From positions 7,192 to 71,191 of the forward strand of contig JAABRY010000001.1 in assembly GCA_011390645.1 (NCBI GenBank): 64,000 bases of DNA, given 5' to 3'. Shown piece after piece: positions 35,187 to 35,340 of this stretch (its first letter is position 1; every line of letters begins with the position of its first letter). The position numbers and the translations under genes were made by a program. A model generated the notes under the pieces. That model was not told the origin of the DNA. It made no database searches and saw nothing but the letters and a program-made list of their open reading frames with translations. Source of the DNA: Gemmatimonadota bacterium (GTDB taxonomy: Bacteria; Gemmatimonadota; Gemmatimonadetes; Gemmatimonadales; GWC2-71-9).

Positions 35187-35340
35187 CAGAGAACGGAGAA
35201 CGGAGCGCGGTAAACAGAGAAACGCGATTGGCGATTGGTGAGTGGCGATTGGTGATCGGTGATCGGTGAACGGGACCAACATCCAATATCCAACATCCAA
35301 CATCCCCTAACGACAAACGACCAACGACTAACGACTTCCC
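35187..35340. repeat. 154-nt intergenic tract made of 22 consecutive heptads in one register
   Basis: CAGAGAA CGGAGAA CGGAGCG CGGTAAA CAGAGAA ACGCGAT TGGCGAT TGGTGAG TGGCGAT TGGTGAT CGGTGAT CGGTGAA CGGGACC AACATCC AATATCC AACATCC AACATCC CCTAACG ACAAACG ACCAACG ACTAACG ACTTCCC. Confidence 0.9.

Follow-up and report, generated by a model that had tools for sequence, protein, structure and literature searches.

A compound heptanucleotide repeat tract between the genes for a flavoprotein and an M14 carboxypeptidase in a Gemmatimonadales bacterium

What is the repetitive DNA that separates a flavoprotein gene from an M14 carboxypeptidase gene in a Gemmatimonadota bacterium, how has it arisen, and does it have a role of its own? 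The tract in question lies in a 64,000-nucleotide (nt) stretch of the assembly GCA_011390645.1 (contig JAABRY010000001.1), which we call the window and which has a guanine plus cytosine (GC) content of 67%. An initial annotation described the tract as 22 heptads of four types, held in one unbroken register between positions 35187 and 35340. It read this register as the sign of a period-7 constraint, and one of the blocks as a possible target of CsrA-type RNA-binding proteins. Here we show that the tract is a known kind of repeat and typical of its lineage: it is very probably a compound heptanucleotide microsatellite that has been made and remodelled by slippage. Neither the CsrA link nor the register constraint is supported.

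The spacer between the two genes (156 nt), together with the last two codons of the flavoprotein gene, consists almost wholly of 7-nt tandem units, which extend from the TAG stop of the flavoprotein gene to 8 nt short of the M14 ATG. When positions 35180-35340 are compared with themselves, the identity is 0.69 at a lag of 7 nt, 0.59 at 14 and 0.52 at 21, whereas it is 0.21-0.32 at every other lag and 0.26±0.035 (maximum 0.38) in 2000 shuffles. Tandem Repeats Finder (TRF) identifies five period-7 arrays here, and the tract qualifies as a heptanucleotide long simple sequence repeat (SSR), with at least three head-to-tail copies of a 7-nt unit, above chance. The intergenic heptanucleotide cluster is thus genuine, and it does lie beside the M14 start and over the flavoprotein stop, as initially described. 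The boundaries and the unit count hold roughly: the heptad at 35180 (CGGAGAT) also belongs to the tract, while 35334-35340 (ACTTCCC) is flavoprotein coding sequence, and 17-18 of the 22 heptads match a named unit with no more than one mismatch. The remainder are degenerate or span junctions (35201 CGGAGCG, 35222 ACGCGAT, 35271 CGGGACC and 35334 ACTTCCC). The features are listed in Table 1.

Table 1. Coordinates of the repeat blocks, the neighbouring genes and the inverted repeat pairs in the window (unit sequences are those of the plus strand)
Feature	Position	Strand	Description
Block 1	35180..35221	-	Six heptads, CRGAGAN family: CGGAGAT, CAGAGAA, CGGAGAA, CGGAGCG, CGGTAAA, CAGAGAA; TRF 35180-35205
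Block 2	35222..35270	-	Seven heptads, YGGYGAD family: ACGCGAT, TGGCGAT, TGGTGAG, TGGCGAT, TGGTGAT, CGGTGAT, CGGTGAA
Non-repeat junction CGGGA (sense UCCCG)	35271..35275	-	Point where the G-rich strand switches
Block 3	35276..35303	-	Four units of CCAACAT (CCAATAT in one case); TRF 35276-35305
CCC trinucleotide (sense GGG)	35304..35306	-	Breaks the homologous phase between blocks 3 and 4
Block 4	35307..35334	-	Four CNAACGA units: CTAACGA, CAAACGA, CCAACGA, CTAACGA; TRF 35307-35336
HI0933-like flavin adenine dinucleotide (FAD) flavoprotein gene	35328..36551	-	Pfam PF03486, E = 3e-65
Flavoprotein TAG stop	35330-35328	-	From the list of open reading frames (ORFs) and translation; in the last repeat unit
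M14 carboxypeptidase gene	32487..35171	-	Pfam PF00246
M14 ATG start	35171-35169	-	The unique 8-nt AGACUGCC and a weak Shine-Dalgarno-like triplet (GAG) lie upstream
GGTGAAA/TTTCACC hairpins	30200-30275, 32400-32475, 39180-39258, 46265-46328, 57355-57440		Folding z -3.8 to -6.6
Weaker GGTGAGG-type inverted pair	58555-58665		z = -2.6; 3/200 shuffles fold as well; left out of the family alignment

On the sense (minus) strand block 4 comes first, as UCGUUNG units; the unit that is last on the plus strand holds the stop of the flavoprotein gene together with its two preceding codons. Block 4 is followed by block 3 as (AUGUUGG)4, which is the UUGGAUG array of the initial annotation, by block 2 as AUCGCCA, AUCACCG and UUCACCG, and by block 1 as C/U-rich, UUCUCYG-type RNA whose edge lies 8 nt before the M14 AUG. 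Neighbouring units differ by one or two substitutions, e.g. in the series CGGTGAA, CGGTGAT, TGGTGAT, TGGCGAT. Blocks 1 and 2 are in phase, with an identity of 0.55 at offset 0, and are one array that has diverged through single substitutions, so for these two the unbroken register stands. It does not hold further along. Blocks 2 and 3 have an identity of 0.02 at offset 0 and their common register is therefore a mere choice of cyclic permutation, while blocks 3 and 4 (CCAACAT and CCAACGA) match best at offset 3 (0.55, compared with 0.44 at offset 0), being out of phase by 3 nt because of the CCC between them. This insertion is missing from a relative's locus, L001 (relatives' loci carry L numbers throughout), and from a second module in the window (6235-6330), in both of which GTCGTWG meets GATGTTG in phase. 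The junction GTTGG-TCCC-(G/T)TTCACC is also present in L209. A period-7 constraint cannot be derived from the kept phase: phase is undefined between unrelated units, the one testable junction (blocks 3 and 4) is off by 3 nt, and the spacer lengths of close strains (156, 156, 163 and 147 nt) are not conserved modulo 7. By their sequences, the blocks have the look of variant repeats as they ordinarily evolve in microsatellites.

The comparison of strains gives the clearest view of how such a spacer changes, since the flavoprotein-to-M14 adjacency is conserved among relatives. Close relatives at 93-94% identity were obtained by a protein search. In L204 and L206 the spacer reads TAG(GTCGTAG)3(GATGNTG)3, followed by a GGTGAAA/TTTCACC hairpin and four AATCGCC-like units, and is 156 nt long. 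L205, whose flavoprotein is identical to that of L204, has one additional GTCGTAG unit (163 instead of 156 nt) and one additional TTTCACC unit in the spacer between M14 and the M1 peptidase gene. Array lengths, which the initial annotation proposed to compare between strains, do differ, and close strains are polymorphic by whole units, including this ±7 nt. In L209, with a 94% identical flavoprotein, the spacer is (GTCGTAG)3(GTCATAG)5(GTCATGG)2 in its first part, the GGATGTT block is absent and the length is 147 nt. Further away, L001 (83-86% amino-acid identity) has (GGTCGTW)2, (GGATGTT)5, (AATCGCC)2.5 and TTTCTCCG..., with 14 of the 16 nt before the ATG equal to those of the window, and L034 has (GAGTCGT)4, (TGGATGT)2 and a CU-rich tail. 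L001, L034 and L209 thus differ by whole blocks. Distant relatives carry different units at the orthologous site, mostly as inverted arrays, and L010 has no array there. The identity at 4-fold degenerate sites is 0.50-0.51 between the window and L001 or L034 and 0.49-0.54 for relatives at 66% identity, where composition predicts ~0.38. As it is as low in the nearer relatives as in the distant ones, synonymous sites are saturated at this range.

The alignment with L204 also shows what part of the tract corresponds to. GTTGG-TCCC-GTTCACCG of the window aligns with GTTGG-(left arm plus loop)-CCCTTTCACC of L204, so that block 2 is a diversified form of the TTTCACC arm on the right of the hairpin in L204.

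Such repeats are common in this lineage. An X-drop self-match scan of the window, with which TRF agrees, gave 12 period-7 arrays, all of them in spacers, and no array at periods 5, 6 or 8-12. Counted by hand, 10 of the 17 window spacers that are longer than 30 nt and have a gene 3′ end contain arrays, compared with none of the five divergent spacers, and the gene calls of the Joint Genome Institute (JGI) on L204 and L209 give the same 3′-end pattern. The unit super-families listed in the initial annotation recur across the window in both TRF and the self-match scan. The best matches of the flavoprotein are in Gemmatimonadales metagenome-assembled genomes (MAGs), at no more than 83% identity. 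There are 18.8 period-7 arrays per 100 kb in the window, 15.3 in six loci at 77% identity or more, 2.7 in 35 other Gemmatimonadota loci and zero in 585 kb from other phyla (38 loci bearing the homologous gene), with other periods near zero across the compared loci. The expected period-7 enrichment of non-coding DNA was thus borne out in 64 kb of the source genome and in its relatives. GGATGTT arrays were considered as a Gemmatimonadota-specific feature and this was rejected, as more than 120 metagenome contigs with a median GC of 0.58 carry them. In 38 of 120 contigs from other taxa (L080-L199) a CCAACAT arm lies within 200 nt of the GGATGTT array, 31 times upstream and seven times downstream; the A-rich arm is again mostly 5′.

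The second module, between a small FmdB-like ORF and a DUF4920 gene, repeats the layout of the tract on its sense strand: TAG-(GTCGTAG)3-(GATGWTG)3-...-(GTTCTCT)2-N16-ATG. It is kept with other copy numbers in L200 and L201 (91-93% identity) but not in relatives at 72-74% identity.

Most arrays in the window are inverted pairs of the form (GGTGAAA)n-loop-(TTTCACC)n, located just after stop codons. The five hairpins of this type in Table 1 can be aligned as a single dispersed family, and their folding is matched by 0 of 200 shuffles. Their A-rich arm invariably lies 5′ of the U-rich one, an arrangement known from bidirectional intrinsic terminators. The number of right-arm copies varies among strains (3, 4 and 5 in the M14-to-M1 spacer), and the dominant hairpin unit varies among genomes: GGTGAAA in the window, GAGAGAAR in L034, CGAGAAG in L002 and L003, and ACGAGAT in L013. 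These genome-specific units point to concerted evolution of dispersed elements inside a genome. Some of the inverted-array hairpins of relatives have period-8 units, GAGAGAAR in L034 (1477-1538, 13980-14070, 16090-16272 and 16788-16907) and CGCGAAGC in L018 (2078-2160). At the site orthologous to our tract, spacers fold with z = -6.0 (L002), -5.7 (L003), -4.9 (L009), -2.7 (L005) and -2.45 (L204).

The elements also have a polarity. Among co-directional spacers, both in the window and in relatives, 20 of the 22 arrays that lie within ~40 nt of the upstream stop show G>C on the sense strand, and 14 of the 14 that lie 50 nt or more downstream of it show C>G. These counts include both arms of hairpins as well as orthologous sites and are therefore not independent. 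The tract follows this pattern. U is the commonest base of its sense spacer (T 51, C 46, G 38, A 24), with 23 G and 6 C in the 5′ 60 nt and 15 G and 40 C in the 3′ 99 nt. It shares with the hairpin family its anchoring at a stop codon, the order of G-rich then C-rich arrays and units homologous to the arms.

The tract lacks the complementary arrays and the stable fold of a hairpin element. It folds worse than shuffled sequences, with z = +2.45 on the sense strand of 35160-35345, +2.70 on the plus strand and +1.07 for the exact spacer, and the frequency of its minimum free energy structure is 0.001, i.e. there is no stable structure. The spacer of L209 is likewise hairpin-less (z = +1.06). We therefore rejected the tract as a hairpin or terminator, as folding is poorer than in shuffles on both strands. 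A consensus scan of the spacer gave no sigma-70-like promoter or canonical terminator pattern. At Rfam gathering thresholds the tract matches no family, and three tRNAs are the only matches in the window (tRNA genes lie among 12339-12510 and 13951-14024). The idea that the arrays keep the M14 ribosome-binding site open is unsupported: in a comparison of native and dinucleotide-shuffled spacers the energy for opening -18 to +12 has z = +0.70, and in the orthologues eight of ten values are slightly negative, only that of L003 being significant. Two further candidates were dropped. A two-tier G-quadruplex rule of one GG per heptad fails because many units of relatives have no GG (GCGAACA, CGAGAAG, ACGAGAT, GAGTCGT), and the outline of a study of intrastrand-triplex repeats (PMC4666352) holds nothing that bears on these heptads.

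Taken as a whole, the following explanation is the one towards which we lean. Slipped-strand mispairing in 7-nt steps very probably makes and constantly remodels the tract, as the comparison of strains shows; single units mutate and their variants are amplified locally, giving rise to what appear as blocks. The tract belongs to a clade-wide class of repeat elements that are anchored at stop codons; read 5′ to 3′ on either strand, they have an array rich in G and poor in C and after it one rich in C and poor in G. In most such elements the arrays are complementary and form a long hairpin at the 3′ end of a gene, which may be a terminator-like or mRNA-end structure. Here the left hairpin arm appears to be missing, and units of the right-arm type (TTCACCG, ATCACCG, ATCGCCA, TTCTCCG) remain behind G/U-rich arrays. 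The transcript would then form a U-rich linker with unusually little structure, rich in G and U at first and in C and U thereafter. In sister strains that have the hairpin, flavoprotein and M14 would be partly insulated from one another. In our genome the tract may be a passive intercistronic spacer that allows read-through into M14, a suggestion that we regard as plausible but make tentatively.

Several observations weigh against this explanation. The order GTCGTWG, GGATGTT, AATCGCC, TTCTCCG and unique 3′ tail is kept in the window, L001, L034 and L204 in spite of saturated 4-fold sites, and the order GTCGTAG, GGATGWT, GTTCTCT, ATG recurs at the unrelated spacer 6235-6330 and in L200 and L201. 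Either a constraint on specific sequences or a spread through gene conversion or mobility could lie behind this. Furthermore, the polarity counts are not independent, the co-transcription of flavoprotein and M14 is assumed, and a sigma-70 consensus scan might miss Gemmatimonadota promoters. A bolder reading is that the arrays are a selected RNA "grammar" of stop-anchored G-rich and then C-rich heptads, read by a trans-acting factor. The reader could be Rho or an OB-fold (oligonucleotide/oligosaccharide-binding) or cold-shock-domain protein that takes one heptad per domain, with units co-evolving with the factor in each genome. This would account for the kept block order, the recurrence of the module and the genome-specific dominant units, and we consider it unlikely. 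The persistent block order, the module at a second locus and the genome-specific units lead us to keep open a sequence-specific role or an origin like that of repetitive extragenic palindromic (REP) sequences or miniature inverted-repeat transposable elements (MITEs).

More specific roles can be weighed against the same data. Might the tract be a Rho-dependent terminator or attenuator? Approximately 100 nt of the sense RNA, its 3′ two-thirds, are C-rich, G-poor and unstructured, in the manner of a Rho utilization (rut) site; Rho would load after ribosome release at the flavoprotein stop and end transcription in early M14 unless M14 is well translated. With 33 C and 11 G, 35198-35275 of the sense strand ranks among the top 0.19% when all 78-nt windows of both strands are considered. 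The RNA has less structure than shuffled sequences, and the C-rich arrays far from stops are consistent across the clade (the 14 of 14 above). However, the most extreme 78-nt window of the 64 kb is on the plus, i.e. antisense, strand (35281-35358, 34 C and 5 G), so the skew belongs symmetrically to the element and is not peculiar to the sense strand. Most sister elements, moreover, have the C-rich arm paired in a hairpin, where it could not bind Rho, and we think a Rho site improbable here. Tuning of M14 expression by heptad copy number in its leader, as at a contingency locus, strikes us as about equally doubtful. The model for this is hmw1A of Haemophilus influenzae, where expression is inverse to repeat number through a 5′ untranslated region hairpin and RNase III (PMC12721329). 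The ±7 nt polymorphism between contigs with identical flavoproteins fits, as do the pyrimidine-rich heptads directly upstream of the M14 start codon. Yet our arrays are short (no more than four perfect copies) and interrupted and should mutate far less than the 11 or more repeats of hmw. The polymorphism seen is in the stop-adjacent block, far from the ribosome-binding site, whose accessibility is like that of shuffled spacers (z = +0.7); the tract has no repeat-containing hairpin, and similar arrays are found in most 3′-end spacers irrespective of gene function.

A further candidate is a protein that reads the heptads, either CsrA titrated or recruited by the GGAUGUU array or a cold-shock or S1-type OB-fold protein on the pyrimidine-rich blocks. 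The Escherichia coli CsrA consensus from systematic evolution of ligands by exponential enrichment (SELEX) is RUACARGGAUGU, and CsrB repeats read CAGGAUG. The GGAUGU of block 3 matches the core of this consensus, and the sense strand of 35276-35305 offers four such motifs in 28 nt, one in a variant unit (GGAUAUU), in RNA predicted to be single-stranded. GGATGTT arrays occur again at 6277-6300 in the same orientation, and unit order is conserved over saturated divergence. That said, the GGA block lies 105-134 nt from the AUG, there is no GGA in the last 30 nt, near the ribosome-binding site, and the motifs are not presented in loops or at a Shine-Dalgarno sequence. L001, L034 and L204 have the block, but GTCATAG units take its place in the 94%-identical L209; Rfam gives no CsrB or Rsm match, and the complementary arm near 38 of the 120 GGATGTT arrays elsewhere would make those double-stranded. 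A tblastn search with three CsrA/RsmE queries, covering the window and every locus (2.07 Mb), did not find csrA, which is uninformative as only 64 kb of the source genome are covered. For the wider class of readers, PMC4679880 relays a report of CspB on heptamer direct repeats, with one protein per heptamer; on the other side, units differ among genomes at the orthologous site, unlike the target of a conserved reader. We consider a heptad-reading protein very unlikely, and give as little credence to the modules being a dispersed palindromic extragenic element, REP- or MITE-like, of which the tract is a rearranged copy. Hairpin-arm units that are genome-specific yet common to many loci of one genome, the single alignable family of window hairpins, the extra flank shared by the copies at 30200 (+) and 32400 (-) and the three-block module at two unrelated spacers would all suit such an origin. 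The strain differences, however, are unit-sized slippage and not insertion or excision of whole elements, and a shared mutational bias could homogenize units and mimic dispersal.

A number of further observations concern the genes and arrays around the tract. The annotated M14 start is supported by the conservation of MR(F/L)RHL and a signal peptide in orthologues, and the JGI call is 894 amino acids long. The alternative that the arrays encode an N-terminal M14 extension (ORF 32487..35303, with an ATG inside the GGATGTT block) was rejected on the grounds of this start, the JGI length and a stop in the same reading of L001. Arrays reach into the last codons of upstream genes (38481-38510 and 35328-35336 in the window, 11215-11250 in L001) and C-terminal tails therefore vary between relatives; that of the flavoprotein is ...GLGSR-stop in the window and ...GLGVLPAGGVNHRS-stop in L001, and an acyl-CoA oxidase ORF terminates within a (GCGAACA)3.7 array. 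The hairpins at 30200-30275 (+) and 32400-32475 (-) have the non-repeat flank TGAAGCGGTGAAAYGTCAAAGG in common and lie on either side of the M1 peptidase gene, inverted relative to each other; this could be a duplication or the footprint of a mobile element. An array (GTCGTTG)5(GGCGTTG)2(GGTGTTG)2 at 6612-6676 begins directly after the stop of a CopD gene. A GGATGTT-like period-7 run at 57715-57746 (4.6 copies, 84% match) encodes ...VEVGRWMLDVGG... and falls in the NlpE_N coding region of the lipoprotein gene 57459-58529, not in a leader. The small ORF beside the second module (6328-6552, minus strand, conserved, 70-79 amino acids) is FmdB/zinc-ribbon-like (MPTYVYQ...FEV.Q...PVERVI.GG...GGCG), with the N-terminal cysteines missing, no Pfam match at E < 0.001 and orthologues in L202 and L203. 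The convergent spacer 4178-4228 contains two copies of a 26-nt direct repeat. Finally, several short-read contigs of close relatives stop inside arrays (L200 1-103, L201 1-105, L207 3137-3238 and L208 1583-1597), from which it follows that heptad repeats fragment the MAG assemblies of this clade.

Intergenic heptads have been catalogued for decades in cyanobacteria, Xanthomonas, Burkholderia and Beggiatoaceae, and what is new here is the phylum: our literature searches gave no description of such repeats in Gemmatimonadota, and nothing relevant on CsrA or tandem repeats there. The Gemmatimonadales clade offers a clean comparative system, with ~15-19 arrays per 100 kb and orthologous spacers that can be traced from an identical flanking protein down to ~65% protein identity. 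The positional rule (anchored at stops, absent from divergent promoter spacers, G-rich then C-rich) merits a look at genome scale, and as one site exists both with and without the hairpin, a terminator, a Rho site and no role at all can be directly told apart by experiment. There is also a practical side, in that the arrays break short-read assemblies of soil Gemmatimonadota and alter the C-terminal tails of adjacent genes.

How does the tract compare with repeats that are already known? The short tandemly repeated repetitive (STRR) sequences of cyanobacteria, reportedly due to Mazel et al. in 1990, are intergenic heptanucleotide tandem repeats with several unit families per genome. Known STRR units include CCCCAGT, TTGGTCA and CAACAGT. 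The units CRGAGAA, YGGYGAT, CCAACAT and CCAACGA are unlike these and the host is a member of the Gemmatimonadales with 67% GC, so the tract is not an STRR in the strict sense; as an analogy, the comparison made by the initial annotation is apt. The annotation also knew of no heptads described in high-GC bacteria other than cyanobacteria; the literature does describe them. According to the summaries in PMC4679880 and PMC4692102, Mrazek et al. (2007) found heptanucleotides to be the commonest class of long SSRs, including in Burkholderia, Xanthomonas and Actinobacteria, and the polymerase footprint was proposed as the explanation for the 7-nt unit length. Calothrix heptanucleotides are also mentioned in PMC4692102.

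The one mechanistically solved heptad case is (ATCTTTC)n of hmw. There, as here, the transcribed leader carries pyrimidine-rich heptads, whose copy number varies between strains, and a G-rich region as their partner (PMC12721329). In contrast to our tract, with its four perfect copies or fewer per block and no hairpin, hmw1A needs at least 10-11 repeats, which form a long hairpin cleaved by RNase III, and the tract is therefore not of this type. The TAACTGA repeats of Beggiatoaceae, which cluster upstream of start codons (MacGregor 2015, PMC4679880), are likewise intergenic heptamers in small sets of 2-6 copies, often a short way upstream of start codons. A post-transcriptional role has been proposed for them, with S1 or cold-shock proteins as possible readers (PMC4679880), and like the GTCGTAG and GGTGAAA units here, TAACTGA provides stop codons in all three frames. 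Unlike that one dominant heptamer, whose relatives in sequence do not form repeats there, our arrays consist of many units with a fast turnover that are mostly anchored at stops rather than starts. The GGTGAAA/TTTCACC elements near the tract resemble the REP sequences and bacterial interspersed mosaic elements (BIMEs) of Proteobacteria, both being dispersed genome-specific palindromes at gene 3′ ends; their arms, however, are tandem heptads of variable copy number, and the tract itself is not palindromic.

The long SSRs, and those of Xanthomonas in particular, are the most similar. Xanthomonas genomes have ~185 intergenic GGGAATC arrays each, some of them as convergent inverted pairs (Rehm et al. 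2015, PMC4692102), and arrays between the same genes of two species differ in length (PMC4692102). The features in common are imperfect 7-nt units, mostly in 3-5 copies, that are intergenic and over-represented in high-GC hosts; syntenic arrays of varying length and sequence; and some convergent inverted pairs that are able to form stem-loops. The Xanthomonas genomes have one dominant unit that contains G3, whereas this Gemmatimonadota lineage has many unit types per genome, and those of the tract are without G-triplets, so a three-tier quadruplex is impossible. What further sets the Gemmatimonadales arrays apart is their strong link to stop codons, their G-rich-then-C-rich polarity and, at this tract, the concatenation of several blocks over the whole spacer.

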